From the UHGV virus genome UHGV-2170153: 22,320 nt of DNA. The stretch is one strand, 5' to 3'. Source of the stretch: a virus. Under the pieces are notes generated by a model. That model was not told the origin of the DNA. It did not search any database and saw only the letters and a program-made list of their open reading frames with translations. The translations under genes were made by a program, and so were the position numbers. Positions 1-18,998 of this stretch are shown here, one piece after another. The first letter of the stretch is position 1. Each line of letters begins with the position of its first letter.

Positions 1-1284
1 TTACTTCTTCGCCTCTGCAACCACTTTACTACCCACGCCGCGGTTATTGTATTCCCACATGCGGTTGTAGTTAGTGTCATTCAGATTGCGCTGTATTTCG
101 TCGTTATCATCTACGCTGCCGGTATTACCCGCAAACGGACGATTAGAGATCACCGCATCGGCCCACGGTTTAGCCGTGTTAAAACCTTCGTTGATGGCGC
201 TATCACGGATCACCACCTGACCGTTGGTATTGGCATCAACATCCAGCGAGCGGCCCAGTTGCGCCACACCATCACCGAAAGCATTGAAACGGCTGTTTAC
301 GGCGAGGAAACCGTAGTAAATGTTGGACAGCGTAGCCGGTGCAAACACATACGCTTCTTGCTGAGTACGTGAGTTCACCACGCGGAATTCGGTGTTATCG
401 AACACCACTGCGCCGCGACCAGAAACGATATCCACATCCCCTTCAATGTAGCTGTTGGTCACCAGCGTACGCGGCTGACGGTTGGTTTCCAGACGGTTCT
501 GCACACCGCTGTTGGTGACAAAGAAGGTGTTCTGACGACCGAGAATGTTAACGTTGTTAATCTGTACCTGGTCACCATCAGTACGCAGTGCCACCGCCGG
601 ATGGTTACCTGCATCTACGCTATCGCCCAGCGTGTTTTCGATGGTCAGATTTTGCAGTTGCAGGCCATTGTTTTGTGACCAGAAGACCGCAGAGCAGAGA
701 ACACCGATACTGTCGCTGCGTTTGCTCTGGCAGCTATCGTACATATACCACGCTGGTTTACCTGGCATATATTTGCCGCGCGGGTTGACGTCGTGACGCC
801 AGTCGGCAGGGCTCATGCCACCATCAAGGGAAAGCCCAATCTTCACATCAATCGGTTTTTCACCTGTACCGTACAGAGTAATTCCACCCGGAGCGGCAGG
901 GACATATACCGTTCCCTGATACTCACCAGGCATCACGGCAATATACTGGCGCTTGTTGGTACGCTTGATAATTGCCGCATCTACCGCCGCCTGAATCGTG
1001 GTATGCGTTACACCTTGAGTGCCCGCCGGGCCGACAACAAAGTCAGGTTGCGCAGGCAGGGTAATCGGGGAAGGATTCCACGCTGCAGCACCTGGTGTCA
1101 GGGATGCAAAATAGTGTTGAGCATCGAAATTCTGCGCTTCTTTTGCCGACAGAATCGGGCGAGAAGAGGTACCAGGCGCGGTTTGATCAGAAGGACGTTG
1201 ATCGGGCGGGGTTGAGCTACAGGCGGTCAGCGTCACGCCAAAAGCCAATGCCAGCGCCAGACGGGAAACTGAAAATGTGTTCAC
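1..1284 (-). CDS. ybhC: YbhC-family outer-membrane lipoprotein (pectinesterase-like), host chromosomal gene flanking the prophage
   Basis: 427-aa ORF; GTG start at 1284 with GGAG 7 nt upstream; lipoprotein signal MNTFSVSRLALALAFGVTLTAC (lipobox LTAC); recognised from memory as the E. coli gene next to attB-lambda. Confidence 0.85.
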   Translation of the reverse strand: MNTFSVSRLALALAFGVTLTACSSTPPDQRPSDQTAPGTSSRPILSAKEAQNFDAQHYFASLTPGAAAWNPSPITLPAQPDFVVGPAGTQGVTHTTIQAAVDAAIIKRTNKRQYIAVMPGEYQGTVYVPAAPGGITLYGTGEKPIDVKIGLSLDGGMSPADWRHDVNPRGKYMPGKPAWYMYDSCQSKRSDSIGVLCSAVFWSQNNGLQLQNLTIENTLGDSVDAGNHPAVALRTDGDQVQINNVNILGRQNTFFVTNSGVQNRLETNRQPRTLVTNSYIEGDVDIVSGRGAVVFDNTEFRVVNSRTQQEAYVFAPATLSNIYYGFLAVNSRFNAFGDGVAQLGRSLDVDANTNGQVVIRDSAINEGFNTAKPWADAVISNRPFAGNTGSVDDNDEIQRNLNDTNYNRMWEYNNRGVGSKVVAEAKK

Positions 1285-3504: not shown

Positions 3505-4801
3505 GGTTAACCTCCTGCGGCGGTTCCGGTAGCGGCATCCAGTGAGTTGCTTGCTCAATACCATTACCCGGCTTAATCGTTGCATCTCCGCGCCGAAAGG
3601 TGCTTCCGGTATAGCGTGCGGAGCATATTAGCGGTTCAACCAGAGAGCTATCGAAATTCACCGAAATAAGCACGTTCTGGCCCTTTTCAGGCATTCGATC
3701 ACTACAGCTTATCCAACCATCCGGAGTTACCGGAGAGTTGCCCGACAGTCTACGCAAAACAGCCTTAACAGCCTCAATACGGTCATCATCGCAATTTTCC
3801 AGCGTATCTATGCGGTCGAGCATGATGATGGCGTTATCAATATCAGGATTGCCAGTCCACTCATTACCGCGATTGGATTCGGCAGCCTGGTTGCCAGATG
3901 CTGGTTGATTGTCGGCTTGGCTATAGCTAACAGCACGGCAGGCATCCTCTACGCCTTTAACTGCATCTGCGCAGTAGTTATAGCGATTGCATTCCACTAA
4001 CTTCTGCTTGAGATTTTCAATTGCTTGCGCGACATCAGCCTGTATTTCTGGAACTGGCGGAACGGCTGTTTGCTCTCGAACGTCATTAGTCGCTATCGGT
4101 TCTGCTGCCAACTGACTGGCATATTTGTTAATGGTAACGATAAGCTCTTGCTCAGCCTCATCCAGACAATCACCGATACCTCGCCTGTCACCGTCAAAAT
4201 CATCGAAATCGGCACGAATCTTGGCAACCTCCCGGATTGCGGACAACACCTCACTAGGAATTACCGGATAGTTGGTTGACGTTTCCGCGATTTCCCGAAA
4301 ATTATTGGTTGACGAATTCTTATTTTCCCGAAAGTTTCCGGACTGAAGCATGGCGGCGCGGCAGGCGTTAAGCGCGTTTTGCACGCGTTTAGCGTTCTGT
4401 ACTTCGTATTTAGGTGCGGCTGCCAATGCCCATAGCCAACCAATTTCATAGCTATCAGCTTTTGATAGAGCACATTCCATTTCCAGTGTTATTTTCTTAG
4501 GTACGAGTTGCCAATCATCTGGCACTACCGGCGCTGGCAGCTCGCGATACAGCGAGATTACACGACGCGGGTCCGCATATTTATCTGGCGGACACTGAAA
4601 TATCTCACCGAAACCATACTTCCTGACATCGCGCAGTTCCTCTTCATCAGTCCATGCCACCGGTTCTGCTTCCAGCGATGCCAGAGCAATCCGTGCCAGC
4701 TCTTCCGCTTCTTCTGCTGGCAGTACAACGTTGCTACCAGGTCCGTATGTTTCGCGCCACTGCTTGATTGTCAGCAGTCGCTCTTTGGTAATAGTGATCA
4801 T
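3497..4801 (-). CDS. Phage protein with C-terminal DUF551-like domain (434 aa)
   Basis: ATG at 4801 with AAGGAA upstream; ATGA overlap with upstream gene stop; C-terminus ...PDGWISCSDRMPEKGQNVLISVNF...ATHWMPLPEPP typical of DUF551 prophage proteins. Confidence 0.75.
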   Translation of the reverse strand: MITITKERLLTIKQWRETYGPGSNVVLPAEEAEELARIALASLEAEPVAWTDEEELRDVRKYGFGEIFQCPPDKYADPRRVISLYRELPAPVVPDDWQLVPKKITLEMECALSKADSYEIGWLWALAAAPKYEVQNAKRVQNALNACRAAMLQSGNFRENKNSSTNNFREIAETSTNYPVIPSEVLSAIREVAKIRADFDDFDGDRRGIGDCLDEAEQELIVTINKYASQLAAEPIATNDVREQTAVPPVPEIQADVAQAIENLKQKLVECNRYNYCADAVKGVEDACRAVSYSQADNQPASGNQAAESNRGNEWTGNPDIDNAIIMLDRIDTLENCDDDRIEAVKAVLRRLSGNSPVTPDGWISCSDRMPEKGQNVLISVNFDSSLVEPLICSARYTGSTFRRGDATIKPGNGIEQATHWMPLPEPPQEVNRG

Positions 4802-5313
4802 GCCGCGTTTCCTTCTTTCTTATTAACAATTACACCGTCATATATTTCATTAAGGTGCCCTCTCAACTCCATGCGCCTTAATGCAGATAACATGTAATCG
4901 CATTCAACCTGCTTATTTCCAGTAAATGGCTTATCGTCAGGATTACCCCAACAGCAATTACCCTTGGGCCACCCATGCACTTTCCGTACTCTTCCGTTAA
5001 CAACGTGAAGTAATCCCCAGCCAGGTGGTAAATCCTCAATTGAAATAATTCCCGGCTCACTAATAAAGAATCGCCAGTCGCCCATTCCAAGAGACGGATT
5101 TTTACGAAAACGCTTTTTTCTATCTGCCAACAAGTCAGCACGAGAACATTTCGCCTCTATCAGGCATGATGCTGAATTTCTGAATCCCATAGCATCTGGC
5201 TGTTCTCCGGTACTGGTTACAGCCATAAAGCGGTCATGAAAACAAACCTTGAACCCGTTGCGCTTAAGGAACTTGTACGCAATCTGACAGAGTTCGCGGT
5301 GTGTTAGCGCCAT
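4798..5313 (-). CDS. Hypothetical phage protein with possible PD-(D/E)xK-like nuclease motif (171 aa)
   Basis: ATG at 5313 with AAGGAGAG upstream (the track's upstream M at 5355 lacks an RBS); motif ...EQPDAMGF...CLIEAKCSRADL suggests D...E-x-K catalytic arrangement (inference by eye). Confidence 0.6.
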   Translation of the reverse strand: MALTHRELCQIAYKFLKRNGFKVCFHDRFMAVTSTGEQPDAMGFRNSASCLIEAKCSRADLLADRKKRFRKNPSLGMGDWRFFISEPGIISIEDLPPGWGLLHVVNGRVRKVHGWPKGNCCWGNPDDKPFTGNKQVECDYMLSALRRMELRGHLNEIYDGVIVNKKEGNAA

Positions 5314-5314
5314 A

Positions 5315-6022
5315 TCACTCTCCTTTGATGCGAATGCCAGTAGCGCGGATTGCATCGATGACTTCAGAAACTTTGTATGCCATTACCGTTTGGTAATCAT
5401 CGTGAAAATCTGTTCGATGAAGCATGCTGCTACGTTCCGGGAGCGTTATTTCCCGAGCATCCAGTTCCTTAACGCGTTCCTCCAGTTCGTAGACCCTGCA
5501 TTGTTCTCTATCATCAATCAGATATAACCCAAGACATTCGCTTTCTACCCAACCGCCAAAATCATGATCGTAACGCTCACATGAAAACTCACCGTCACCG
5601 TCCTTTGTTGGAATGGTGTAACTGTCTAATGGGCCACCGTACGTCGGCACATTTCCTAATGTCGGATGCTCAATCCACATAAAAAATGCACGTCCGGTTA
5701 TTGGGCAAATATCTGGCCGCCATTGGTTACGAACAGCGTTGGTTTCTGATAATTCTTCAGCGTGTTGTTTTACTTCCTCAAGCTCAACACGCAGCTTCCC
5801 TACCGTTAGCGCAATATCCTCGTTCTCCTGATCGCGGCTTTTGATGTATTGCAGGTTTCTTTCCCGTTCATCCAACAATGCCAGCGCGATATCTGGCGAA
5901 AAGTGCTTCATAAAATCGTTAAGCGCATTAATTCGCTGATCGAAAGGCATTACAGGTGCTTCACCAGCAATTTTTGTTTTTTCAGCGATTTCACGAAGCT
6001 TTTGATAATCAATCTTGCTCAC
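5315..6022 (-). CDS. Ead/Ea22-like family protein (235 aa, GTG start)
   Basis: GTG at 6022 with AAAGGAGG 6 nt upstream; N-terminal coiled-coil [17 protein letters not shown]...; resembles Ea22-like proteins of lambdoid b-region (memory, moderate). Confidence 0.65.
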
Positions 6023-6186
6023 TGGTTGCCTCCTTTGCGCCACATCGCATTCAGATATTTGTTTTGATTCACTGACGGAAAAGAATTTCTCTTAAGTAAT
6101 TCCTCTCTCGATGGCATTGGCTTTACGCGTTGGCGAATAATCATTTCTGCCGGAAGAATGCCGGGATTGTATGCAAGTCCTCTCAT
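6019..6186 (-). CDS. Small hypothetical protein (55 aa); alternative start at 6204
   Basis: ATG at 6186 with AGGAA 6 nt upstream; in operon context between coupled genes; short, so uncertain. Confidence 0.4.
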
Positions 6187-6196
6187 GGTAAATTCC

Positions 6197-6490
6197 TCAG
6201 TCATTACTGATAGCGCCATAGCGTGAGCGGTAATTACGCAGGCGCGGGTCAATTTCAGGGAAGTGGGTATATGTGGCTTTGCGGAATGGTCGGATTGATG
6301 TCTGGTAAATTCGCTCGCGTTCTTCTTTCTCTGCAAGCCATATACAATGGCGAAATTCCTTTTCCTCTTTCGTTTCCTGCGGTAGCGACATTATCCGGTC
6401 GTAGTTTTTTCCGAATTTATCCAGCACCTCCAATACGGAATTGCCGGAACAGCGGCGCGGGTCATCCGCACCATACAGAGGCGCTGGCAT
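6197..6490 (-). CDS. Hypothetical phage protein (97 aa)
   Basis: ATG at 6490 with AGGAG 6 nt upstream; basic C-terminal half. Confidence 0.65.
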
Positions 6491-6506
6491 GTTTTTCTCC
6501 TGTTGA

Positions 6507-7054
6507 TTATTTAGCTAACTTTTTCCAGATCGCTGAAACGTATTTGGCTTGGTGAATGGCATCATCAAGCGCGTTGTGGCGAGTTCCTTTGAATGGCATA
6601 TCTCGCTTAGGGTCGAATCCTATTGCCTTCCCAAGTTCGACGATTGTTCTTACGTCGCGGTCATTCCACCACTGCCACGGAACTGGCTGCCCTGTCAGCG
6701 AATAACTGTTGCGGAGAATAACGCAGTCAAATGATGCTCCATTCCCCCAAACCTGAACGAATTTGTGGTTAGCGTTCTTTATGATGAATTCAGATAACCA
6801 TGAAAGAGCCGTTGAGAGCTCTTGAGTGTTGCTGGTTAGCGATTTTCTGGCTTCTTCACTCTGTTCCATCCACCATAAAATCGTTGAAGCGTCAGGACGC
6901 GCCCGATATCGCATTGATGACTCAAGCGAGATATTTACCGAGAACTCTTCTCCTGTTTCTCCGGTATTCGGGTCAAAGAATACCGCCCAATAGAAATAAC
7001 TGGCGCGTATGGCCCGTTGCCCATTGTTTCAAGGTCAACCATCAAGTGATTCAT
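6507..7054 (-). pseudogene. DnaQ-like (DEDDh) 3'-5' exonuclease interrupted by a frameshift at a G3/C3 homopolymer (~6983..6990)
   Basis: N-terminal 39-aa frame from ATG 7054 (RBS AAGGA) encodes Exo I motif MNHLMVDLETMGNGPYAPVISIG then stops; the rest (AVFFDPNTGE...GNGASFDCVIL...HNALDDAIHQAKYV) continues in the +1 frame with no start codon; one extra G would fuse the frames into ~178 aa. Confidence 0.7.
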
Positions 7055-7062
7055 GTAAGTCC

Positions 7063-7578
7063 TTAAATTGCGTGAATAGCGTGACGAGGGAAGGGGAGAG
7101 TTACTGGTGCAAAGGGGATGTCGTCGTCAAAATCCATAGGTGGTTCGCTGTGATTTCCCTGCTGCTGAGGTTGCTGTCTTTGTTGCTGACCATTATTTCG
7201 CTGAGGTGAAGACTGTTCATTGCCTCCTTGCTTGCCACCAAGCATTTGCATGGTTCCACCAACGCCCACGATGACTTCGGTAGTGAACCGATCCTGTCCG
7301 CTTTGATCCTGCCATTTTCTTGTCCGCAATTTGCCTTCAAGATAAACCTCAGAGCCTTTTCGCAGATATTCGCTGGCAATTTCTGCCAGTTTCCCGCTCA
7401 TTACCACGCGGTGCCACTCCGTCTGCTCCTTTTGCTCTCCAGTTTGCTTATCACGCCATTGTTCTGACGTAGCAACGGTAAGGTTTGCAAATGCCGTTCC
7501 TGATGGTGAATATCTGATTTCTGGATCATGCCCAAGGCGACCAATAATGATCACCTTATTTACGCCTCTGCTTGCCAT
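7063..7578 (-). CDS. ssb: Single-stranded DNA-binding protein (171 aa) with 15-aa extension past the conserved DDDIPF tip
   Basis: [59 protein letters not shown]... OB-fold core closely resembles E. coli SSB; ...[11 protein letters not shown] then continues [15 protein letters not shown] before TAA. Confidence 0.9.
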
Positions 7579-8286
7579 TTATGCCGCCTGTTTTAGCTCG
7601 TTAACTCTGATGTTCATTACCTGAACGCATTTAGCCTGCGCCTCCTCGTTTCCAGCCATTAATTGCCAGTCACGCTGATAACGCTCGATGAGTTTTTTCT
7701 TGTCAGTTTCTGTTGACGCATAATCGCTGAAGTCTTTCAGGATTTGTTCGCAGTCAACCGATGGAGATTTCTGGTTGGTATTTTCTGGTGATGGTTTGTT
7801 ATCTGATGCTGGGATTGCCCATCCCGGCAGTGATGGAGGGAGCCAGTAAAATCCTGTTCCATCCTTCAGTTTTGCCCTGTGCCACCCCTGCTTTTTATCG
7901 AGAGATGTTTGTGCGAAACCTTCCTCAAGGTTATACAGATACCGACCGATTCCCCACTGAACGGCAGCGCGCTTCATTGCACCGGAACGACCACCTTTGA
8001 CGGCTTCTACCTGCGTGTTTTCAGCAGCATCCCATTTGGTTACCCATTCGGAATCAATCTTTATTGATATGCCGCATTCAACGCCGCCGTTGTTGGGAAT
8101 ATCGCGGTATTCATTGCGCCATCCTGCTTTGCCGCAAACATCGTCCAGGCGTTTCATGATTGCCCGGTTCGTGACATAAGCCAGCACCATAGCCCACACT
8201 TTGCCATCGCGTGTTTTACCGCTTTGCTGTATTCGCCATTCGATATCTTCAGGGCTGAATGGCTCATCGAATTTATTCAAATCCAT
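7579..8286 (-). CDS. Rad52/Rad22-family single-strand annealing protein (235 aa)
   Basis: ATG at 8286 with GAGGTGA RBS; N-terminal pattern FSPEDIEWRIQQSGKTRDGKVWAMVLAYVTNRAIMKRLDDVCGKAGWRNEY matches Rad52-type SSAP signature (memory); sits in the lambda bet position next to ssb and exonuclease. Confidence 0.7.
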   Translation of the reverse strand: MDLNKFDEPFSPEDIEWRIQQSGKTRDGKVWAMVLAYVTNRAIMKRLDDVCGKAGWRNEYRDIPNNGGVECGISIKIDSEWVTKWDAAENTQVEAVKGGRSGAMKRAAVQWGIGRYLYNLEEGFAQTSLDKKQGWHRAKLKDGTGFYWLPPSLPGWAIPASDNKPSPENTNQKSPSVDCEQILKDFSDYASTETDKKKLIERYQRDWQLMAGNEEAQAKCVQVMNIRVNELKQAA

Positions 8287-8385
8287 AATTCACCTCAGAA
8301 TGGACACGGCCCAAGGAAATAACGCTGATTTAATACTTCGACTCGGGACAAATTAAGGCATACCCGCATTCCTTCGCGGTCACCA

Positions 8386-8544
8386 TTATGGCGATACCAG
8401 AGAGCTTTCTGCGTGTACATGCGTCTCTGTAACTTGCTCTCCTTCACCGTGGTTGCAAGTGACATGAATATCTCCTTCGTTACCGATTAAATCTTTCATC
8501 TGACGAATGAATTCTTCGTCTGACCAGTTATCTGTAAAACTCAT
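8386..8544 (-). CDS. Small hypothetical protein (52 aa) in the gam position
   Basis: ATG at 8544 overlapping kil stop (ATGA); acidic sequence MSFTDNWSDEEFIRQMKDLIGNEGDIH...; no similarity to lambda Gam recognised. Confidence 0.4.
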   Translation of the reverse strand: MSFTDNWSDEEFIRQMKDLIGNEGDIHVTCNHGEGEQVTETHVHAESSLVSP

Positions 8545-8693
8545 TTCCTGCGATACCACGGAAGGTTGATAGCTGATTTCATCGCTTTATTTGCTTCAAG
8601 CCACATTTTTGAATCACCAATAAAGCTGGCTATTACTGCTTTGTTTTGTGCTGCACGAAGCATCTGGTGATTGATGGCTATTTCATTGCGCAT
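8541..8693 (-). CDS. kil: Kil-like host-killing/FtsZ-inhibitor protein (50 aa)
   Basis: MRNEIAINHQMLRAAQNKAVIASFIGDSKMWLEANKAMKSAINLPWYRRK; shares the SFIGDxKM core with lambda Kil (memory); GAGG RBS; below the ORF-track length cutoff. Confidence 0.6.
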   Translation of the reverse strand: MRNEIAINHQMLRAAQNKAVIASFIGDSKMWLEANKAMKSAINLPWYRRK

Positions 8694-8809
8694 AATAAGA
8701 CCTCAACTCTTTTCCATCCGTCACGTAATTTACGGGTGATTCGTTCAAGTAAAGATTCATTTAGTTGGAAGGCACCCATGCGAGCGCCTCCCGCGATTGC
8801 GTAAATCAT
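8678..8809 (-). CDS. cIII: cIII-like protease (FtsH) inhibitor (43 aa)
   Basis: MIYAIAGGARMGAFQLNESLLERITRKLRDGWKRVEVLLCAMK; conserved core ESLLERITRKLRDGWKR as in lambda CIII; AAGGAA RBS; found by manual translation. Confidence 0.7.
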   Translation of the reverse strand: MIYAIAGGARMGAFQLNESLLERITRKLRDGWKRVEVLLCAMK

Positions 8810-8832
8810 GGGTGGTTCCTTATGTTGGTTTA

Positions 8833-9801
8833 TTAGTAGGTTATTTTTGTTGCGAATACTTCGCCTTTTACGATGGCTGTTATGATATTTTTAGCAACAT
8901 CTTCTGATGCGCCAACCTTGATAATGTCAGCAAGTATTTTGTTATTTACTTCTTTCCGGTGAGCTTTATCCTTTGCTCTACGCTCTTCTTCGTCCTTGAT
9001 TCTTTTTTCTTCTGCTATTCTGGCTTGCTCTTTTGCTTCAGCCTCGCGCCGGATTCGTTCAGCCTCCTCCTGTGCTTTTCGGCGTTCTGCTTCAATTGCC
9101 GCCTGCTTTTCTCTTTCAGCTCGTTCTGCTGCCTCTTTTGCTTCGCGCTGTGCTCGTTGCTCGGCTTCAATGCGTTCACGCTCTGCACGTTCCGCTGCGG
9201 CCTTAGCTTCTGCTTCTCGCCTTGCTGCTGCTTCAATTTCGGCTTTTGCCTTTGCTTCGGCTTCTGCTCTGGCTTTCTCTTCAGCTTCTCTTTTTAAGCG
9301 TTCTTCATGCTCTCGCTTTTCCTGCTCCGCTTTGAGTCTTGCCTCTTCTCTTTGGCGGTCAAATTCGCGATCCATCAAAATCGCTATTTCATGGTCAGAC
9401 TCAATTTGCTTTGCGAGAGCTTCAGCTGCTGCCTTAGCTTCTTCTTCGGCTTTAATCCGTGCCTGTTCCTCCTCATAATCAGTAAGAGGCTGGCGCGCCT
9501 TGGCTTTCAGTTCATCAAGGCGATCGCGCACTGTCTTGCGGTTAGCATCAATTAGCTTTGGAATTTCCTTCAGTTCAGCAACAAGGTCTTTGCCAAGACC
9601 ATCGAGATATGTTTTCGTCTGCGCAACTTTATACGCCAGAGAAGCGATCTCCTTTCTGCCCTTTGCCGTTGTGATATCAGGCACAAAGGACATAACTTCA
9701 CGTTCAACCTTTTGGAGAATTTCTTCAATCTGGTCGGCAGACTGAAATACAGTCATCGCATTTGCTTTTTCAATAACAACTAAATCTGTTACTTCACTCA
9801 T
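8833..9801 (-). CDS. Coiled-coil Ala/Glu/Lys/Arg-rich phage protein of unknown function (322 aa)
   Basis: ATG at 9801 with GGAGGA 4 nt upstream (the track's upstream M at 9897 lacks an RBS); long low-complexity central region EAEAKAKAEIEAAARREAEAKAAAERAERERIEAEQRAQREAKE... Confidence 0.75.
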   Translation of the reverse strand: MSEVTDLVVIEKANAMTVFQSADQIEEILQKVEREVMSFVPDITTAKGRKEIASLAYKVAQTKTYLDGLGKDLVAELKEIPKLIDANRKTVRDRLDELKAKARQPLTDYEEEQARIKAEEEAKAAAEALAKQIESDHEIAILMDREFDRQREEARLKAEQEKREHEERLKREAEEKARAEAEAKAKAEIEAAARREAEAKAAAERAERERIEAEQRAQREAKEAAERAEREKQAAIEAERRKAQEEAERIRREAEAKEQARIAEEKRIKDEEERRAKDKAHRKEVNNKILADIIKVGASEDVAKNIITAIVKGEVFATKITY

Positions 9802-10092
9802 ATATCCTCCATCAAAAAAAATCGCCCTCACACTGGAGGGAAAAGAAGATTTCCAATAATCAGAACAAGTCGGCTCCTGTTTAGTTACGAGCGACATTGC
9901 TCACATAGCAGACTCGTAAATCTGCTATAGGCGCTTATTCGCATCGCATGACAACATCAAATTTTTCGAGATTACTTTGTCGCAACAATCCTTTTTCTAC
10001 GCGGTCAGCTTTTCTATAATTATCAAATTAGAAATGTTTAATTACTTCTTTCGTTTCTCGCTCTATAACTTCAACAATGTATTTCTTATTCA

Positions 10093-10371
10093 TCATTCTT
10101 CCCCCAGAGCCTTGCTGATGGCTGCCTTGGCTCGTTTGTATTCGGTTAACTCTCTGCACCCTTCGTCATGCTCGTAAATGAAGACAAGCTCTTGCAGTGC
10201 TTCAAGCAAATCAGGAGCTGCTGCTATCAGTAGCGCATCCTCCCTTTCATTTCTTGTTGCTGCTTCAATGTATGTGTCACCAATCGTCACACCATGGAAC
10301 GTAGTCATCATCTCGTTGACGTTTCTAACCGTGTACTTCCATTTACCAGGCGTACCCTTAAACTCTTTCAT
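10093..10371 (-). CDS. Hypothetical early-left protein (92 aa)
   Basis: ATG at 10371 with GAGG 5 nt upstream (track begins at in-frame GTG 10377); MKEFKGTPGKWKYTVRNVNEMMTTFHGVTIGDTYIEAATRNEREDALLIAAAPDLLEALQELVFIYEHDEGCRELTEYKRAKAAISKALGEE. Confidence 0.65.
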   Translation of the reverse strand: MKEFKGTPGKWKYTVRNVNEMMTTFHGVTIGDTYIEAATRNEREDALLIAAAPDLLEALQELVFIYEHDEGCRELTEYKRAKAAISKALGEE

Positions 10372-10393
10372 ATCCACCTCTGTTGTTTATGCC

Positions 10394-10419
10394 AAAAATA
10401 AAGGCCGACTATGCGGCCT
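10394..10419 (-). terminator. Candidate intrinsic terminator (tL1-like) on the pL transcript
   Basis: Minus-strand hairpin AGGCCG-catagt-CGGCCT followed by TTATTTTTGG; lies between the membrane-protein ORF and the 92-aa gene. Confidence 0.5.
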
Positions 10420-10423
10420 GAAA

Positions 10424-10735
10424 TTACTTAACCAATGATGCCGCATATTCAATTAGGAATAACTTAGGTGCAAGCCAAATCTTCAACCATTCGAAATTGA
10501 AGGCAATAATTAAAACACCCATAATTGAGCCAAATATAGGAACAAATACAGTGCATATATCGTAATAAACCGAAGATATAAAATGTTCATCATTTGGACG
10601 TCCATCGAAAGACGTCCATCTCTCGCCATTATTTCTTGCCGTTCTTGCAAAACTAGGAAGTTTAATTGCTGCAATTAAAAGCAACAATCCAGCCACTTGG
10701 AAAAGTGCGCTATGGACAAAACTCCATATTAGCAA
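10424..10735 (-). CDS. Putative membrane protein, possibly SieB-like superinfection exclusion; start uncertain (TTG) or gene disrupted
   Basis: Two hydrophobic segments (VHSALFQVAGLLLLIAAI, VFVPIFGSIMGVLIIAF); open frame extends upstream to 10849 with no ATG/GTG; position directly after N matches sieB in lambda/P22. Confidence 0.45.
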   Translation of the reverse strand: MLIWSFVHSALFQVAGLLLLIAAIKLPSFARTARNNGERWTSFDGRPNDEHFISSVYYDICTVFVPIFGSIMGVLIIAFNFEWLKIWLAPKLFLIEYAASLVK

Positions 10736-10854
10736 CTGATGAACAACATCAGGAATCTGTGCCTGGCTAAATGAAACAGCCGCGTCTATTCCATTGCTGG
10801 CTTTTTGCAGTAGTTCTACGAGAATCTTGTTTGCTTGTTCTTCTACATCTCACC

Positions 10855-11190
10855 TCAAATAAGTGGTTTGCTGCCTAATTTCATTTTTTGGCGACCAACA
10901 CAAGTCACCCCCATTTCACTGCGTGGCTTGCGGTAGTAAATACGGTTCTGTTTACGCTCGACTTCTTCTGCCTTCTTGCAGCGAAGGCTTCCGAGTGATG
11001 CTGCTTTTTCAGAAAGGCTTAAACGCTTTCTTGGGGCTTCCTGAACAGGTTCCTCACTGTCTGTGCCGAAGATCGAATCGATGATGTTGCATATAGCATC
11101 ACGCTCGATAGCCAGCTTTCTGCGCCGCTCATGACGGCGAGTTTTGGCATTTCCTGCAAATGTTGATTTCCCGTACACGATTACCGTCAT
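10855..11190 (-). CDS. N: Antitermination protein N with P22-type arginine-rich motif (111 aa)
   Basis: MTVIVYGKSTFAGNAKTRRHERRRKLAIERD... (ARM GNAKTRRHERRRKLAIER as in P22 gp24); C-terminus ...YYRKPRSEMGVTCVGRQKMKLGSKPLI resembles lambda N; GAGGAAAA RBS; track start at 11274 lacks an RBS. Confidence 0.85.
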   Translation of the reverse strand: MTVIVYGKSTFAGNAKTRRHERRRKLAIERDAICNIIDSIFGTDSEEPVQEAPRKRLSLSEKAASLGSLRCKKAEEVERKQNRIYYRKPRSEMGVTCVGRQKMKLGSKPLI

Positions 11191-11309
11191 GATGTTTTCC
11201 TCATGTGAAATGGCTTTGGTGGTGATGCGCCAGATGCTGATCTTCTGGTTGCTGTCGTTGCAGCTGCAATTCACATCACCGCCAAACCCATCTCGTTTGG
11301 TATCTGTTT

Positions 11310-11343
11310 GCGCTTTGTCAGCGCCCCATCGAAGTTAAAGAGC
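11310..11343 (-). promoter_or_regulatory. nutL: nutL: boxA (11343..11334, GCTCTTTAAC) and P22-type boxB hairpin GCGCTGACAAAGCGC (11324..11310)
   Basis: Minus-strand boxA-like GGCTCTTTAAC, 9-nt spacer, then boxB with GACAA pentaloop; located between pL and N. Confidence 0.8.
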
Positions 11344-11382
11344 CTGCCAATCTGTTCCGTTTGGCGTCCTGCTGATGGCTAA

Positions 11383-11411
11383 ATAGTACGATGTGTACTT
11401 TATTGAGTCAA
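11383..11411 (-). promoter_or_regulatory. pL promoter candidate (-35 TTGACT, 17-bp spacer, -10 TACTAT) embedded in operator-like repeats
   Basis: Minus-strand TTGACT (plus 11406..11411) and TACTAT (plus 11383..11388); upstream of nutL and N. Confidence 0.6.
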
Positions 11412-11474
11412 TACAAAATGTTCTAAATGCGGTTAGTTTTTTATAACACTTTGTATTTTATTGATTTATATTTT

Positions 11475-11506
11475 GGAAAAAGAAAACCCGACGCTAAGGT
11501 CGGGTT
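11475..11506 (-). terminator. Intrinsic terminator downstream of cI
   Basis: Minus-strand hairpin AACCCGAC-cttagc-GTCGGGTT followed by TTCTTTTTCC; separates the cI transcript from pL. Confidence 0.65.
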
Positions 11507-11536
11507 ATTGTTGTGTGTTTTAGAGTGGTGAGGCTG

Positions 11537-12190
11537 TTAACTAAATGTCTCTTCAGGCCACTGGCTGGCGATAACTTTCCCTACTACGGAACAGCTATCA
11601 TTGCATGGGATCATTGGATATTGCGGGTTTAGTGGTTGTAGGAACACCTGACCGCTATCCCTGATCAGTTTCTTGAAGGTAAACTCGTCACCACCAAGTC
11701 TGGCTATGCAGAAATCACCTGGCTCAACAGCCTGCTCAGGGTCAACGAGAATTAACATCCCGTCAGGAAAGCTTGGCTTGGATCCTGTTGGTGCGGTCAT
11801 GGAATTACCTTCAACTTCAAGCCAAAACGCACAATCACTGGCTTTTTTGGTTGTGCTGACCCATCTCTCCGCATCGCCTTTGGTAAAGGTTCTAAGCTCA
11901 GGCGAGAACATCCCGGCCTGAACATGAGAAAAAACAGGGTACTCATATTGTTTTTTAACGGGGGCAGATGAGTATTCGCCAACAGGTGAAAATGTACCGT
12001 CGTGGTTGAATGAGACGTTATCAATACCAAGGTATTTAAACACCACACCAATCTCGTCAAGAGATGGATGACGAGATCCGCGCAACCAGTGACCAATTCC
12101 ACCCTGCGTCATACCAAGCTCTTCAGCTAACTTCTCTTGAGTTATGCCGAGCTCTTTCATTCTGGATCTAGCCAGTTCATACCATTTCAT
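11537..12190 (-). CDS. cI: CI repressor, chimeric: heterologous HTH N-terminal domain fused to lambda-type C-terminal dimerisation/autocleavage domain (218 aa)
   Basis: C-terminal ~120 aa nearly identical to lambda cI ([37 protein letters not shown]...[11 protein letters not shown]); N-terminal [36 protein letters not shown] is a different HTH; start chosen at 12190 (AAGGG 7 nt upstream; 12196 also possible). Confidence 0.9.
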
Positions 12191-12252
12191 TTTCATACCC
12201 TTATTATTACGCTCTGTACTAAAACCATCCATGCACAAGATGTATTTTTTGT

Positions 12253-12281
12253 TTGCATTCCAAAAGTACATATCGTATTAT
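12253..12281 (+). promoter_or_regulatory. pR promoter candidate (-35 TTGCAT, 17-bp spacer, -10 TATTAT) with overlapping operator-like repeats
   Basis: TTGCAT 12253..12258 and TATTAT 12276..12281, ~20 nt upstream of the cro RBS. Confidence 0.6.
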
Positions 12282-12307
12282 TGTTTCATGGTTACTATGG
12301 AGGGCAT

Positions 12308-12523
12308 ATGAGCAACCTACGAAAATATCGAGAGTCACTGAATATCTCTCAAACAACACTTGCTAAGGCGGTTGGATGCACACAGGGAGCTATCGGACAT
12401 TGGGAATCTGGTCGTCGCTTCCCAGACCTTAAAACATGCCGTGCTCTTGTTGCGTGCCTAAACAAGTTAGGCGCAAAAGTCAGTCTTGATGACGTGTTCC
12501 CACCGGAACACAAAGCCGCTTAA
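12308..12523 (+). CDS. cro: Cro-like HTH repressor (71 aa)
   Basis: ATG at 12308 with GGAGGG RBS; MSNLRKYRESLNISQTTLAKAVGCTQGAIGHWESGRRFP... HTH; divergent from cI. Confidence 0.85.
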   Translation: MSNLRKYRESLNISQTTLAKAVGCTQGAIGHWESGRRFPDLKTCRALVACLNKLGAKVSLDDVFPPEHKAA

Positions 12524-12533
12524 TAAGCGGATC

Positions 12534-12568
12534 CGCTCTTTATCAATCTGCACCGCCGACAACGCGGT
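12534..12568 (+). promoter_or_regulatory. nutR: nutR: boxA CGCTCTTTA (12534..12542) and P22-type boxB ACCGCCGACAACGCGGT (12552..12568)
   Basis: Consensus boxA, 9-nt spacer, boxB hairpin with GACAA loop, just downstream of cro. Confidence 0.8.
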
Positions 12569-12580
12569 AACTAATTAATC

Positions 12581-12610
12581 ACTCATCGAAAGATGAGTAT
12601 TAGTGATTAT
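12581..12610 (+). terminator. Possible tR1-region hairpin
   Basis: ACTCATC-gaaa-GATGAGT stem nested within AATCACT...AGTGATT, followed by ATTATTT. Confidence 0.3.
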
Positions 12611-12632
12611 TTACCTATGGAAATAGTAAGAA

Positions 12633-12929
12633 ATGGAACAAACAAGTTACAGCAAACTATCACAGCGCGACGTTGATCGCGCTGAAACAGATTTACTCAT
12701 CAACCTGTCAACGCTTACACAGCGCGGTCTGGCAAAGATGATTGGCTGTCATGAATCGAAGATAAGCAGAACGGACTGGAGATTTATTGCTTCGGTCTTG
12801 TGTGCTTTCGGAATGGCATCAGACATCAGTCCGATTAGCAGGGCTTTTAAGTATGCGCTTGATGGAATCACAAAGAAAAAATCCCCGGTGGCCGCCGGGG
12901 ACTCTAAGCAAATTGATATGCAATTCTGA
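12633..12929 (+). CDS. cII: CII-like transcriptional activator (98 aa)
   Basis: ...KISRTDWRFIASVLCAFG...ITKKKSPVAAGDSKQIDMQF parallels lambda CII (...KKRPAATERSEQIQMEF); position after cro/nutR. Confidence 0.8.
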   Translation: MEQTSYSKLSQRDVDRAETDLLINLSTLTQRGLAKMIGCHESKISRTDWRFIASVLCAFGMASDISPISRAFKYALDGITKKKSPVAAGDSKQIDMQF

Positions 12930-12961
12930 GGGAATTACTGGATCAATCCACAGGAGTCATT

Positions 12962-13807
12962 ATGACAAATACAGCAAAAATACTCAACTTCGGCAGAGGT
13001 AACTTTGCCGAACAGGAGCTAAGAGTGGCTGATATCGATGATGGTTACACCAGATTCGCTAACGAGCTGCTGGAAGCTATCGCAAGTGCCGATTTAACCG
13101 CTCGCCAGTTGAAAGTTATGCTGGCCTACGTCCGGAAAACATATGGATTCAATAAGAAAACAGATCGAATAGCCGATGAGCAAATTGCTCAGTTAACAGG
13201 ACTGTCAAGGCAGAATGTTAACAAGGCTAAAAAAGAACTGATTTCAATGAATTGCCTGTTTATGGATGGAAATAAAATCGGTGTAAACAGGGAGGTATCT
13301 GCGTGGCAATTCAGCAAGTGTCTCCAAGTTAGCAACTTTGTCTCGAAGTTAGAGACAAAAAATGTCTCCAAATTAGAGACACTCAATGTCTCGAAGTTAG
13401 AGACACACAAAAGACATTCTTTAAAGACAAAAGAAAATATTAATAAACCCCCTATATCCCCCAAAAAAATTTCTCAGAAGTTCGACCCGCTAGAAACAGA
13501 GTTGCCTGATTGGTTATCGGCAGAAACATGGTTGTCGTGGGTTACCTATCGCAAGGAGATAGGTAAGTCGATCAAGTCTAAGCAAAGCGTCACTCAGGCT
13601 ATCAACGTTCTAAGCAGAAGTCTGGAGAAGGGATATACACCTGAAGAAATTATAAACCAGAGCATCGCCAGTGGTTGGCAGGGGATTTTTGAACCCAAGA
13701 CTCCAAAGGGGAAATCTCAACCGAGGCCGCAGCAGCGAGCTATGCAGGAAAACTTTGCCGCCAAAGATTACGGGCAAACTGAAATGCCTTCATGGGCGCA
13801 GGAGTGA
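12962..13807 (+). CDS. O: Replication initiator O-like protein (281 aa)
   Basis: MTNTAKILNFGRGNFAEQELRVADIDDGYTRFANELLEA... matches lambda O N-terminus; AGGAG RBS; iterons inside the gene. Confidence 0.9.
   Translation: MTNTAKILNFGRGNFAEQELRVADIDDGYTRFANELLEAIASADLTARQLKVMLAYVRKTYGFNKKTDRIADEQIAQLTGLSRQNVNKAKKELISMNCLFMDGNKIGVNREVSAWQFSKCLQVSNFVSKLETKNVSKLETLNVSKLETHKRHSLKTKENINKPPISPKKISQKFDPLETELPDWLSAETWLSWVTYRKEIGKSIKSKQSVTQAINVLSRSLEKGYTPEEIINQSIASGWQGIFEPKTPKGKSQPRPQQRAMQENFAAKDYGQTEMPSWAQE
13319..13470. repeat. ori: Origin of replication: four ~19-bp iterons (TGTCTC-N7-GAGACA type, e.g. tgtctcgaagttagagaca) followed by an A/T-rich tract
   Basis: Iterons start near 13319, 13339, 13363, 13387; A/T-rich 13406..13470; encode VSKLET repeats within O. 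Confidence 0.8.
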
Positions 13808-13809
13808 AC

Positions 13810-14655
13810 ATGACGCTGGATGAAAAGATCTCCCAACTGGAGAAAAAACTTGCAGAATTGAGTTCTCCGCCAATTGCTATCGAGCATACAGCTGTAGAAA
13901 TTGGCACTGGCATCTGTGAAAAACATGGTGAGTTTGAGCAGCGTAACCGTTACTCGACTGGGCCAATTAAGTTTGCCTCAAGACCTAGCGAATGCCCGGA
14001 ATGCATGAGAGATGAGCTTATTCGGCTACAGGCAGAGAAGATTAAAATCGACGAAGAATCACGTAAGCGCAATGTCGAGTTTCTGTTGAATAATCTTGAT
14101 ATTCCTGAACGATTCAAGGGTTGCACACTACAGAACTACGAGCCAGTCAACGACGATGCAAAGAGAGTGCTCAGGGTGTGTCAGGCATACGCCAGCAAAT
14201 GGCCTGAGAGGTTACAGAAAGGCGGTGGGCTGGTTATGTGCGGAAAGCCTGGTACTGGAAAGAATCATCTTGCACTGGCTATCGCCCGGCACGCAATTAC
14301 GGAACATCAAAGCTCAGCTATTTTCACAACGGCGCTGAAAATTGCCAGAGAATATAAATCAACATGGTCTAAAAACTCCACCCGCACAGAGGATGAAGTG
14401 ATCCGACAGTTCACTAAACCTGACCTGCTAATTATCGATGAGGTTGGTGTGCAGTTTGGAAGCGAGGCGGAAAAGATGATCATGTTCGAAATCATCAACA
14501 CCCGCTACGAGTGCATGAAGCCAACAATCCTGATTAGCAACCAGAGCAAAGATGAACTGTCTGCATTCATTGGTGAGCGTGTTATTGACAGGATGAATGA
14601 TGGCGGCGGGTGCACTCTTGCGTTTACATGGGATAGTTACAGGAGCAGATCGTGA
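13810..14655 (+). CDS. DnaC/IstB-type helicase loader ATPase (281 aa), in place of lambda P
   Basis: Walker A GKPGTGKNHLALAI and Walker B DLLIIDEVG; ATG 13810 with GGAG 6 nt upstream; track start 13792 overlaps O and is rejected. Confidence 0.85.
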   Translation: MTLDEKISQLEKKLAELSSPPIAIEHTAVEIGTGICEKHGEFEQRNRYSTGPIKFASRPSECPECMRDELIRLQAEKIKIDEESRKRNVEFLLNNLDIPERFKGCTLQNYEPVNDDAKRVLRVCQAYASKWPERLQKGGGLVMCGKPGTGKNHLALAIARHAITEHQSSAIFTTALKIAREYKSTWSKNSTRTEDEVIRQFTKPDLLIIDEVGVQFGSEAEKMIMFEIINTRYECMKPTILISNQSKDELSAFIGERVIDRMNDGGGCTLAFTWDSYRSRS

Positions 14656-14942
14656 CTGGAAAAGAAATCATCCTGGAATATCTGAAAACTCATGAACAAT
14701 TCTCCCCACATGAATTAGCACTGATCACCGGAATACCAAATAACAGAATCGCTCAAGCAGCAAGGCATATGGTGAAACAAGGGAATTTGAGTGTTGTTGA
14801 GCGTAAGTGGAAGACGGTTATTTATGCAAAACGCAAAGTGAAGAAGGAGCCAATTAAAAGAAATCCAGATGGTACGGGGTGGGGATGTGCAAATCCAATG
14901 ACGGCGTTTATTAATAGGGCGCTTATGGAGGTAAGGCAATGA
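14652..14942 (+). CDS. ren: Ren-like protein (96 aa, GTG start)
   Basis: MTGKEIILEYLKTHEQFSPHELALITG... parallels lambda Ren N-terminus (MTGKEAIIHYLGTHNSF, memory); AGGAG RBS; GTGA overlap with loader stop. Confidence 0.75.
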   Translation: MTGKEIILEYLKTHEQFSPHELALITGIPNNRIAQAARHMVKQGNLSVVERKWKTVIYAKRKVKKEPIKRNPDGTGWGCANPMTAFINRALMEVRQ

Positions 14943-14966
14943 CCATCTACATCACTGAGCTAATAA

Positions 14967-15000
14967 CAGGCCTGCTGGTAATCGCAGGCCTTTTTATTTG
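14967..15000 (+). terminator. Intrinsic terminator (tR2-like)
   Basis: AGGCCTGC-tggtaatc-GCAGGCCT followed by TTTTTATTTG. Confidence 0.8.
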
Positions 15001-15015
15001 GGGGAGAGGGAAGTC

Positions 15016-15456
15016 ATGAAAAAACTAACCTTTGAAATTCGATCTCCAGCACATCAGCAAAACGCTATTCACGCGGTACAGCAAATTCTTCCAGACCCAA
15101 CCAAACCAATCGTAGTAACCATTCAGGAACGCAACCGCAGCTTAGACCAAAATCGGAAGCTTTGGGCTTGCCTTGGTGACGTCTCTCGTCAGGTTGAATG
15201 GCATGGTCGCTGGCTGGATGCAGAAAGCTGGAAGTGTGTGTTTACCGCAGCATTAAAGCAGCAGGACGTTGTTCCTAACCTTGCCGGGAATGGCTTTGTG
15301 GTAATAGGCCAGTCAACCAGCAGGATGCGTGTAAGCGAATTTGCGGAGCTATTAGAGCTTATACAGGCATTCGGTACAGAGCGTGGCGTTAAGTGGTCAG
15401 ACGAAGCGCGACTGGCTCTCGAATGGAAAGCGCGATGGGGAGATCGGGCTGCATGA
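15016..15456 (+). CDS. ninB: NinB/Orf recombination protein (146 aa)
   Basis: MKKLTFEIRSPAHQQNAIHAVQQILPDPTKPIVVTIQERNRSLDQNRKLWACLGDVSRQVEWHG... matches lambda NinB. Confidence 0.92.
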   Translation: MKKLTFEIRSPAHQQNAIHAVQQILPDPTKPIVVTIQERNRSLDQNRKLWACLGDVSRQVEWHGRWLDAESWKCVFTAALKQQDVVPNLAGNGFVVIGQSTSRMRVSEFAELLELIQAFGTERGVKWSDEARLALEWKARWGDRAA

Positions 15457-15980
15457 CTATCAAATCAAATACGCCAGCACACGACAAGGACTGCTGGCAA
15501 ACGCCGCTTTGGCTTTTTGATGCACTGGATATTGAGTTTGGATTCTGGCTGGATTCGGCAGCGAGCGACAAAAATGCTCTGTGTGCTCACTGGCTAACTG
15601 AGGCCGACGACGCGCTCAATTCTGAGTGGGTAAGCCACGGTGCAATCTGGAATAACCCACCGTACAGCAATATCAGGCCGTGGGTGGAAAAAGCTGCTGA
15701 GCAGTGCATACAACAGCGACAGACGGTAGTTATGCTTGTGCCAGAGGATATGTCAGTCGGATGGTTCAGCAAGGCTCTGGAGAGTGTCGACGAAGTTCGC
15801 ATTATCACTGATGGACGGATTAATTTTATCGAACCATCGACAGGGCTGGAGAAGAAGGGAAACAGCAAAGGCTCCATGCTGCTGATTTGGCGACCGTTCA
15901 TCAGTCCTCGACGGATGTTTACTACCGTATCCAAAGCGGCATTGATGGCGATCGGGCAGGGTGTCAGGAGGGCGGCATGA
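15453..15980 (+). CDS. DNA N6-adenine methyltransferase, phage Dam-like (175 aa)
   Basis: NPPY motif ([10 protein letters not shown]); ATGA overlap with ninB stop; typical nin-region methylase. Confidence 0.85.
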
Positions 15981-16153
15981 GGCGACAGCGACGAAGTATC
16001 ACCGACATCATCTGCGAAAACTGCAAATACCTTCCAACGAAACGCTCCAGAAATAAACGCAAGCCAATCCCAAAAGAATCTGACGTAAAAACCTTCAACT
16101 ACACGGCTCACCTGTGGGATATCCGGTGGCTAAGACATCGTGCGAGGAAATGA
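15977..16153 (+). CDS. ninE: NinE (58 aa)
   Basis: [58 protein letters not shown] matches lambda NinE; AGGAGG RBS. Confidence 0.85.
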
Positions 16154-16155
16154 CA

Positions 16156-16554
16156 ATGGATTATTCACAGTTAAGTGATTTTGAAATTAACGTGGCGGTA
16201 TTCGAATCCATTCATAACGGATCACCGGATTACAAAGAAGGTGAGAATGGCGATATGGTGTTTGTCTCATTTGAGGGAGACATTGTAAACGGAGACGCAG
16301 TTGAAGTAGAAGTTGAGCGCGGATCCTTTAACCCATGCGTAAACCCAGCAGACGCATGGCCGATTATCACTGAAAACAAAATTAGCACCATGTGGATGAC
16401 AGCGGAAAAAGAATGGTGCGCATGGTCAGGAGGTGATTTAGAGGAAGGTTGTTGGGAATGGGAAAATATTCCTGACTACTGCTTCTGCGGTGAATCGCCT
16501 CTCCGCGCAGCCATGATTGTATTTCTCATGATGCAGGACGCCAATAATGCTTAG
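16156..16554 (+). CDS. Acidic hypothetical nin-region protein (132 aa)
   Basis: ATG 16156 with GAGGAA 6 nt upstream; MDYSQLSDFEINVAVFESIHNG...CWEWENIPDYCFCGESPLRAAMIVFLMMQDANNA. Confidence 0.7.
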   Translation: MDYSQLSDFEINVAVFESIHNGSPDYKEGENGDMVFVSFEGDIVNGDAVEVEVERGSFNPCVNPADAWPIITENKISTMWMTAEKEWCAWSGGDLEEGCWEWENIPDYCFCGESPLRAAMIVFLMMQDANNA

Positions 16555-16723
16555 CCCATCCCAATCCCTTCAATACCAGAAAGAAAGCGTCGAGCGAGCT
16601 TTAACGTGCGCTAACTGCGGTCAGAAGCTGCATGTGCTGGAAGTTCACATGTGTGAGCACTGCTGCGCAGAACTGATGAGCGATCCGAATAGCTCAATGT
16701 ACGAGGAAGAAGACGATGAATGA
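16547..16723 (+). CDS. ninF: NinF-like zinc-binding protein (58 aa)
   Basis: MLSPSQSLQYQKESVERALTCANCGQKLHVLEVHMCEHCCAELMSDPNSSMYEEEDDE (CxxC...CxxCC); below track cutoff, found by manual translation. Confidence 0.7.
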   Translation: MLSPSQSLQYQKESVERALTCANCGQKLHVLEVHMCEHCCAELMSDPNSSMYEEEDDE

Positions 16724-17438
16724 GTTAATAAATGGCAATGCCATCAAAATGACAAGCATTGAAATCGCTGAGTTGGTGGGTAAGCGTCATGACAATGTGA
16801 AACGTACCATCGAAACGCTGGCTAAAAATGGTGTTATCCGGCTTCCTCAAATTGAGGTTTCCGAAAGAATCAATAACTTAGGGTTCAATGTTCAGTACGA
16901 GCATTACGTCTTCGAGGGCGAACAAGGTAAGCGAGACAGTATTGTCGTTGTAGCCCAGTTGTCGCCGGAATTCACGGCTCGCCTTGTTGACCGTTGGCGA
17001 GAGCTTGAAGAAGCTGCGGTTAATATCCCAAAAACGCTACCAGAAGCGTTGCGCCTTGCTGCTGACCTTGCTGAGCAGAAAATGCAACTGGAAAACCAGC
17101 TCGCAATTGCCGCACCTAAAGTTGAGTTTGCCGATCGCGTTGGCGAGGCCAGCGGAATTTTGATTGGAAACTTTGCAAAGGTTGTTGGAATTGGTCCAAA
17201 CAAACTGTTTGCGTGGATGCGCGATCACAAAATCCTTATTGCTTCAGGTTCCCGGCGCAATGTGCCAATGCAGGAATATATGGATCGCGGCTATTTCACA
17301 GTGAAAGAAACAGCGTTCAACACAAATCACGGAATACAGATATCGTTCACCACAAAAATCACCGGGCGTGGTCAACAGTGGCTGACCAGAAGGCTGCTCT
17401 ATAGCGGAATGCTGAAAGTAACAGGGGAGGCTGCTTAA
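16716..17438 (+). CDS. Rha-family phage regulatory protein with KilA-C antirepressor-type C-terminal domain (240 aa)
   Basis: N-terminal TSIEIAELVGKRHDNVKRTIETL (Rha-like); C-terminal KLFAWMRDHKILIASGSRRNVPMQEYMDRGYFTVKE (Ant/KilAC-like); GAGGAAG RBS. Confidence 0.8.
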   Translation: MNELINGNAIKMTSIEIAELVGKRHDNVKRTIETLAKNGVIRLPQIEVSERINNLGFNVQYEHYVFEGEQGKRDSIVVVAQLSPEFTARLVDRWRELEEAAVNIPKTLPEALRLAADLAEQKMQLENQLAIAAPKVEFADRVGEASGILIGNFAKVVGIGPNKLFAWMRDHKILIASGSRRNVPMQEYMDRGYFTVKETAFNTNHGIQISFTTKITGRGQQWLTRRLLYSGMLKVTGEAA

Positions 17439-18087: not shown

Positions 18088-18272
18088 ACGCCACAATTCA
18101 AACGATACCAGAGCTTCTTATCCAGACACGAGGCAATCAGACCGAAGTGGCGAGGATGCTTTCCTGTGCAAGAGGAACAGTGCTCAAGTACAACCGAGAC
18201 AGCAAAGGCGAGCGTCACGTAATAGTTAACGGCGTCCTGATGGTCAAACAAGGCAAGAGGGGAAGACGATGA
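18084..18272 (+). CDS. ninH: NinH-like protein (62 aa)
   Basis: ...TIPELLIQTRGNQTEVARMLSCARGTVLKYNRD... parallels lambda NinH. Confidence 0.8.
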   Translation: MNATIQTIPELLIQTRGNQTEVARMLSCARGTVLKYNRDSKGERHVIVNGVLMVKQGKRGRR

Positions 18273-18892: not shown

Positions 18893-18934
18893 CGGCATGA
18901 TTGCCACGGATGGCAACATATTAACGACATGATA

Positions 18935-18963: not shown

Positions 18964-18998
18964 TGACTCAACGATGGATAAATGCACTCGTTAAATAA

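Follow-up and report, generated by a model that had tools for sequence, protein, structure and literature searches.

Introduction

DnaQ-like 3'-5' nucleases are listed as a component of lambdoid Rec modules in a 2025 survey, with epsilon34 as an example (Genome Res 2025, PMC12315714). According to this survey, nucleases of the DnaQ type usually inhibit recombination, the Rec modules of P22 and HK620 contain no nuclease at all, and the biochemical role of the intact Rec-module nuclease has yet to be tested (PMC12315714). In E. coli, EcD (HREX) is a homolog of T4 DexA that is reported to break down 5hmC DNA and to confer protection from T4; in DexA itself, W152 and D169 are the residues that recognize 5hmC (NAR 2025, PMC12153337).

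Here we describe a copy of the Rec-module nuclease gene that is split between two reading frames. It lies in UHGV virus genome UHGV-2170153, of which a stretch of 22,320 nucleotides, hereafter the window, was analyzed. A first-pass annotation, made from the sequence alone, had read the split as a single-base frameshift in a homopolymer run and had offered three explanations for it, namely a pseudogene, a sequencing or assembly indel, or a slippage-prone switch. We conclude that the lesion is very probably a genuine and recent 1-bp deletion that arose once, and that the window carries a null allele (pseudogene) of an accessory exonuclease of the Rec module.

Prophage context of the exonuclease gene

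The window contains a lambda-like, lambdoid prophage of E. coli that is integrated adjacent to ybhC. It opens in ybhC itself (1..1284), which is followed by a tyrosine integrase gene and the early-left operon. The exonuclease gene (6507..7054, minus strand) belongs to a block of minus-strand genes with the order rad52-ssb-exonuclease-abc2, in which the gaps between genes are 0, 8 and 16 nt. The first gene of the Rec module encodes a Rad52/Rad22-type single-strand annealing protein of 235 aa (7579..8286; PF04098, E 5e-26), and the upstream neighbor of the exonuclease gene encodes a phage SSB of 171 aa (7063..7578; PF00436, E 2.1e-38). On the downstream side, the abc2 ORF (6197..6490) lies 16 nt past the exonuclease stop, carries its own AGGAG ribosome-binding site and encodes a full-length Abc2 anti-RecBCD protein of 97 aa (PF11043 model 1-97 of 97, E 7.3e-62). 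Ead/Ea22 (6043..5315, minus strand) comes next in the local gene order. All of the neighbor genes of the exonuclease are full length, and annotated relatives share the rad52-ssb-exonuclease-abc2 order, which places the gene in a Rec module. The N gene is represented by an ORF at 10855..11274 that matches the N_peptide Pfam family.

Searches of the window with Rfam (gathering threshold) and ARAGORN returned nothing. A 1.1-kb spacer (18893..20002), flanked by the Q antiterminator gene (18269..18892) and the holin gene (20003..20326), is without a convincing ORF, tRNA or Rfam match. E. coli relatives have no annotation in the Q-holin spacer either, and some of its sequence matches plasmids too (371 places).

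Identity of the encoded enzyme

The first-pass annotation had identified the product as a DnaQ-like DEDDh exonuclease, and Pfam, invariant catalytic residues and structural matches all bear this out. Once the missing base is restored, the repaired protein covers the whole of PF16473, the Rv2179c-like 3'-5' exoribonuclease domain (model 1-177 of 177, E 6.6e-74, 247.9 bits against a cutoff of 27), and it also matches PHROG 255, annotated as 'exonuclease'. The two pieces encoded by the window lie in register on the PF16473 model. The C-terminal piece matches positions 47-177 (E 1.2e-49, 168.9 bits), and the N-terminal piece matches positions 1-23 with a score slightly below the cutoff of 27 (E 5.2e-6, 26.7 bits). 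NCBIfam gave no match for the repaired protein, and PADLOC returned no more than a weak, generic match to DEDDh (E 1.8e-4) that does not support assignment to a known defense system.

The residues of the DEDDh signature (DxE, D, H-x4-D), which correspond to D7, E9, D110, H160 and D165, are invariant in 32 homologs that share 57-87% identity with the first sequence of the set, P0003. An AlphaFold model of P0003, which is 99% identical to the repaired protein, reached a pLDDT of 92.9. The top match of this model among solved structures is T4 DexA, followed by REXO2/Orn, RNase T and RNase AS; T4 DexA (8KEL/8KEN) is also the sole solved relative found by sequence (phmmer against the PDB, 8KEL E 1.1e-13). 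The domain match, the catalytic residues and the RNase H-like DEDD fold are thus those of a PF16473 member, and what the window copy lacks is an uninterrupted single reading frame.

A one-base deletion splits the reading frame

In intact relatives the exonuclease gene is 549 nt long and encodes 182 aa, a little more than the approximately 178 aa that had been estimated for the repaired enzyme; in the window the gene measures 548 nt. Alignment to an intact copy from an E. coli prophage (NZ_CP195467.1), mEp235 and Salmonella phage epsilon34 leaves exactly one gap in the window, confirming that a single-base frameshift splits the gene. The gap falls in a GGG run on the minus strand (plus-strand CCC, 6986..6988), where the first-pass annotation had put it. 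That annotation had also suggested a comparison of the run among orthologs: the relatives have GGGG and the window has GGG (ATTGGGGCGG in relatives versus ATTGGGCGG in the window). The GGGG of intact alleles encodes G23-A24 as GGG GCG, so the lesion lies at codons 23-24, where relatives read ATT GGG GCG GTA and the window reads ATTGGGCGGTA.

The upstream fragment opens with ATG 7054, which is preceded by a good Shine-Dalgarno sequence (AAGGA). As had been described, its ORF encodes the Exo I motif (MNHLMVDLETMG; D7, E9) and stops after 39 codons (6935..7054, minus strand, from ORF reading and Pfam). It is composed of 23 native residues (MNHLMVDLETMGNGPYAPVISIG) and 16 out-of-frame residues (RYSLTRIPEKQEKSSR), followed by a TAA stop (6937..6935). 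The downstream fragment is an ORF of 135 codons (6507..6914, minus strand) that corresponds to native residues 48-182 and contains Exo II (D110) and Exo III (H160, D165). Its ATG at 6914 (Met48) lies 20 nt past the premature stop, and no clear Shine-Dalgarno sequence precedes it. The native residues 24-47 are left out of both fragments. On the AlphaFold model of P0003, the frameshift maps within beta2 (residues 19-27), and Met48 comes after beta3.

The downstream frame opens at about codon 11, and from there to codon 40 it overlaps the frame of ATG 7054. Before ATG 6914 the downstream frame contains no ATG, GTG or TTG. The earlier statement that the remainder of the domain continues in another frame without a start codon therefore holds as far as ATG 6914, but the label given to that frame, +1, does not: its offset relative to ATG 7054 is +2, which is equivalent to -1 ((7054-6914)=140=3x46+2). 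Because of this offset, a ribosome would need to slip back by one base to enter it.

The GGG allele in independent assemblies

We looked for the GGG allele in several collections. It was present in none of the 149 complete E. coli RefSeq genomes that carry the segment; this test used the 71-nt GGG version at ≥99% identity, and the top matches all spanned 72 nt, equivalent to GGGG. A 35-nt pattern that accepts either allele matched 62 IMG/VR contigs and 15 metagenome contigs, every one of them GGGG, and the exact GGG pattern was found neither in GTDB representative genomes nor in IMG/VR. The GGG allele was reached solely through an exact-protein look-up of the 135-aa C-terminal fragment, which is called on 7 contigs in this look-up and on 4 contigs in the protein collection.

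The GGG-bearing contigs come from ERZ920321, JGI 3300029567 and ERZ1304610 (L004, L005 and L006), representing at least three independent metagenome assemblies. The ERZ920321 contig was assembled with MEGAHIT (k127) from human gut (ERR1190803), and the ERZ1304610 contig is a SPAdes NODE with a coverage of ~18x, as given in the NODE name. All three fetched contigs carry GGG together with the linked SNPs of the window and form a single haplotype. L004 and L006 are 100% identical to the window over 5309..16914 (11,606 nt) and diverge to the left of 5309, and the third contig is 99.985% identical to the window over 3640..16914 (13,275 nt).

L004 and L006 part from the window at a sharp mosaic boundary, located where the ead/ea22 gene has its 3' end (window 5309; L004:11606 onward). 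Beyond it their left arm differs from that of the window, with Fic/PhdYeFM, Tad2-like and dUTPase genes and a different integrase.

Because the same allele recurs across projects, assemblers and two mosaic backgrounds, an error specific to the window is very improbable, and the shared haplotype indicates that the frameshift is real and inherited, with a single origin. In principle the assemblies may all sample one widespread clone, in which case the mutation would be real even so.

Age of the allele and predicted loss of function

The repaired 182-aa sequence is matched exactly on 161 contigs of E. coli and Shigella in the protein collection, and three synonymous and zero non-synonymous changes separate the repaired gene from the nearest intact allele. 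Among 54 intact alleles the pN/pS was 0.125, showing that the exonuclease family is under purifying selection. As the repaired protein is the same as an intact protein and the family is under selection, the allele in the window is best explained as a recent null; judged from its sequence, this copy is a recent pseudogene that has so far acquired no secondary damage.

With GGGG reduced to GGG at codons 23-24, translation from ATG 7054 would end after 39 codons, and the resulting 39-aa peptide would hold only beta-strand 1 with D7 and E9. Synthesis of the remainder (D110; H160, D165) could begin only at the internal Met48, if it occurs at all. Residues 24-47, which run from the last part of beta2 through beta3 into the beginning of the first helix, would be missing from both products, and an active DEDDh site is not expected to form. 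DEDD exonucleases require the Exo I carboxylates (D355/E357 in Klenow; D12/E14 in the epsilon subunit), and for this reason we infer a null allele; by analogy with these enzymes, activity is presumably lost. Of the explanations in the first-pass annotation, the pseudogene is the one that fits a real, inherited deletion with two incomplete fragments. The deletion probably arose on one haplotype that now appears to circulate in gut E. coli prophages.

The prophage probably stays functional in other respects, since the P22 and HK620 modules are nuclease-free, abc2 comes with a ribosome-binding site of its own and N antitermination of the pL transcript is expected to guard against Rho polarity. 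For the genes downstream, polarity is unlikely because of the AGGAG site of abc2 and the presence of the N gene.

Other damaged copies and a recurrent breakpoint

A census of gene state was taken over 104 related loci, of which the three GGG loci had entered via the look-up for that allele. The gene is intact in 89 of the 104, with GGGG or an interrupted run retained. Apart from the GGG frameshift (3 loci), small lesions comprise an insertion of one T (TTT to TTTT, gene nt ~58-61) 8 nt upstream of the G run in one locus (L101, IMGVR_UViG_2648501797_000001), and a nonsense mutation at codon 4, with a restart possible at Met5, in another (L030). The 5' end is replaced at nt 36 in one locus (L105), and in five others the 5' part is replaced and homology to the gene begins at nt 88-94. 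One locus (L060) carries the converse product, in which gene nt 1-95 are retained and the sequence then diverges. Three loci are truncated by the contig or locus end.

A perfect 8-bp inverted repeat (6962..6985, minus strand) directly follows the G run, with arms CGGTATTC (6985..6978) and GAATACCG (6969..6962) and a loop of 8 nt; the DNA fold is -6.6 kcal/mol (z -2.6). A recurrent deletion breakpoint lies at the 3' foot of this repeat, at gene nt 92-95 (between CC and GG) and ~25 nt downstream of the G run. The junctions are at L085:4060, L086:4118, L087:4169, L097:6134, L100:7881 (equivalent to L106 at about 9070) and L060:29. At least five independent internal prophage deletions end at nt 92-95, with 2-6 nt of microhomology, and their partners are unrelated right-arm DNA, namely the ninE/ninB region, sequence upstream of ybcO, the terminase large subunit gene and tail genes. 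One junction is 100% identical in the complete genome NZ_CP135658.1 (strain TUM10008), where it lies in a degraded P22-like remnant; three other junctions are absent from all 5,426 complete genomes.

We considered whether the 5'-replaced variants could be insertions of one mobile element, and rejected this as the abutting sequences all differ and no 5' fragment of the gene lies nearby. Assembly chimerism was likewise weakened as an explanation by the 100% match in a complete genome; because the junction is present in TUM10008, we take the junctions to be real deletions.

In the TUM10008 locus (L106, NZ_CP135658.1 490300-508510), PGAP labels a chimeric ORF of 165 aa '3'-5' exonuclease' and not a pseudogene. 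The chimera consists of a terminase-derived leader joined to exonuclease residues ~31-182, without Exo I. Metagenome annotations, too, list the 135-aa fragment of the window allele as a protein.

Candidate causes of the breakpoint are a hairpin/polypurine fragile site or a site-specific cut. It may be that positions 6988..6961 of the window, comprising the GGGG run, the 8-bp hairpin and an 18-nt purine-rich tract, are a fragile site that repeatedly yields exonuclease nulls and that loss is favored in lysogens, a proposal that we regard as quite improbable. The nulls counted under this proposal are the GGG deletion, the T insertion close by and six or more independent large prophage deletions with an end within CC|GG at gene nt 92-95. 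If it were true, the site would point to a site-specific break or replication stalling that shapes the decay of lambdoid prophages. The recurrent deletion endpoint beside the G run may merit separate study.

Alternative explanations

Several other readings of the split gene can be weighed against a real null allele. The sequencing or assembly indel named in the first-pass annotation would mean that the true sequence is GGGG and that the gene is intact in the organism. Homopolymer indels are a frequent error on some platforms, the repaired protein is a known intact protein and the allele occurs in 0 of 149 complete genomes, all of which would suit an artefact. However, a run of four bases is not error-prone in Illumina data, and the identical GGG allele recurs in at least three assemblies that differ in project and assembler (one at ~18x, with flanks 99.985-100% identical) and in two different mosaic contexts, leaving an artefact very unlikely. 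A phase-variable switch, in which changes in G-run length by slipped-strand mispairing would toggle the exonuclease, draws on the position of the lesion in a homopolymer and on another, independent indel in prophage L101, 8 nt farther upstream (TTT to TTTT). Known phase-variable homopolymers are typically ≥7 in length, whereas the intact run here is only four G. Its length is invariant in the 149, 62 and 15 other copies, some intact alleles interrupt it (GGT GCG, GGGT) without consequence, and all GGG copies belong to one haplotype, which argues for a single event. Neither a long mutable repeat nor length polymorphism among close relatives, as expected of a contingency locus, was found, and the slippage-prone switch proposed earlier is scarcely credible. 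Recoding would require that a programmed -1 frameshift, or termination-reinitiation with complementation between the fragments, gives active enzyme. The overlap of the frames from about codon 11 to codon 40, the hairpin 3' of the run, the location of Met48 20 nt beyond the premature stop and the fact that a -1 slip on U GGG C would give the exact wild-type sequence all favor it. Against it, the overlap (codons 11-40) contains no X XXY YYZ heptamer, the hairpin follows the run with a spacing of 0 nt and occurs in intact alleles just as well, the regional RNA fold is unremarkable (z -0.81), every relative has a single ORF, and the two fragments jointly lack residues 24-47, beta3 included. With no heptamer, no suitably spaced structure and no conserved two-frame layout, recoding seems extremely unlikely. 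A rare spontaneous -1 slip of tRNA-Gly on U GGG C may still produce wild-type protein at a very low level.

A further question is whether the loss was selected, that is, whether lysogen or phage gains an advantage from the null allele, for example if the exonuclease is mildly toxic or antagonizes recombination. The persistence of the allele in several samples and two mosaic backgrounds would fit such a scenario, as would the independent damage to the gene elsewhere (the T insertion, the early nonsense codon and several 5' deletions) and the usual inhibition of homologous recombination by DnaQ-type 3'-5' nucleases (PMC12315714). However, the family as a whole is under purifying selection (pN/pS 0.125), 89 of the 104 sampled copies (~86%) are intact, and the 5' deletions remove many other genes too and say little about the exonuclease. 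We consider selected loss unlikely.

Our preferred reading is that of an ordinary frameshift pseudogene of a known prophage accessory gene, since the presence of a nuclease in Rec modules has already been described. The apparent 'split gene' is then a true and recent loss-of-function allele whose importance is small. For annotation, 6507..7054 should be marked as a pseudogene and not as a 135-aa '3'-5' exonuclease'. Natural nulls of this kind provide ready isogenic material for studying the role of the Rec-module exonuclease, be it control of recombination or a DexA/EcD-like action on foreign DNA.

Comparison with known systems

A distant relative is Rv2179c / RNase AS of M. tuberculosis, which shares PF16473 (247.9 bits) and the fold (4OKE, 4HVJ; TM ~0.6) and is missed by phmmer against the PDB. 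RNase AS is a poly(A)-specific exoribonuclease, and Rv2179c gave PF16473 its name. This substrate preference is not transferable to the prophage protein.

T4 DexA is closer, sharing the DEDDh 3'-5' exonuclease fold (TM 0.80, Foldseek E 1.6e-12; PDB 8KEL/8KEN) and 33% identity over 163 columns (BLASTP E 2e-19), with the Exo I and Exo II motifs aligned. The prophage protein is 45 residues shorter and is without several DexA loops; DexA I89-D90, which are needed for tetramer formation, lie in an insertion that is missing from it. DexA W152 aligns with W130, and the alignment ends at DexA residue 162, before D169. EcD, a short DexA homolog in E. coli genomes, belongs to the same broad DexA-like family. 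Identity with EcD was ruled out from its termini (MIDTET.../...TIPETY, from the cloning primers, versus MNHLMVDLET.../...IWKKLAK in the prophage protein). By analogy, a defense role for the Rec-module type may be suggested as a lead only.

The closest described system is the Rec-module DnaQ-type nuclease, with epsilon34 gp34 as the prototype and further members in mEp235 and mEpX2, which is the same gene as that of the window. Over 661 nt the window is 98.6% identical at the nucleotide level to mEp235 and 90% identical to epsilon34. In the epsilon34/mEp235-type module the gene occupies the same place, closely flanked by ssb and abc2 and with the Rad52-type annealase gene upstream. Unlike the epsilon34-type nuclease gene, the window copy has lost 1 nt and with it the capacity to encode the complete enzyme.
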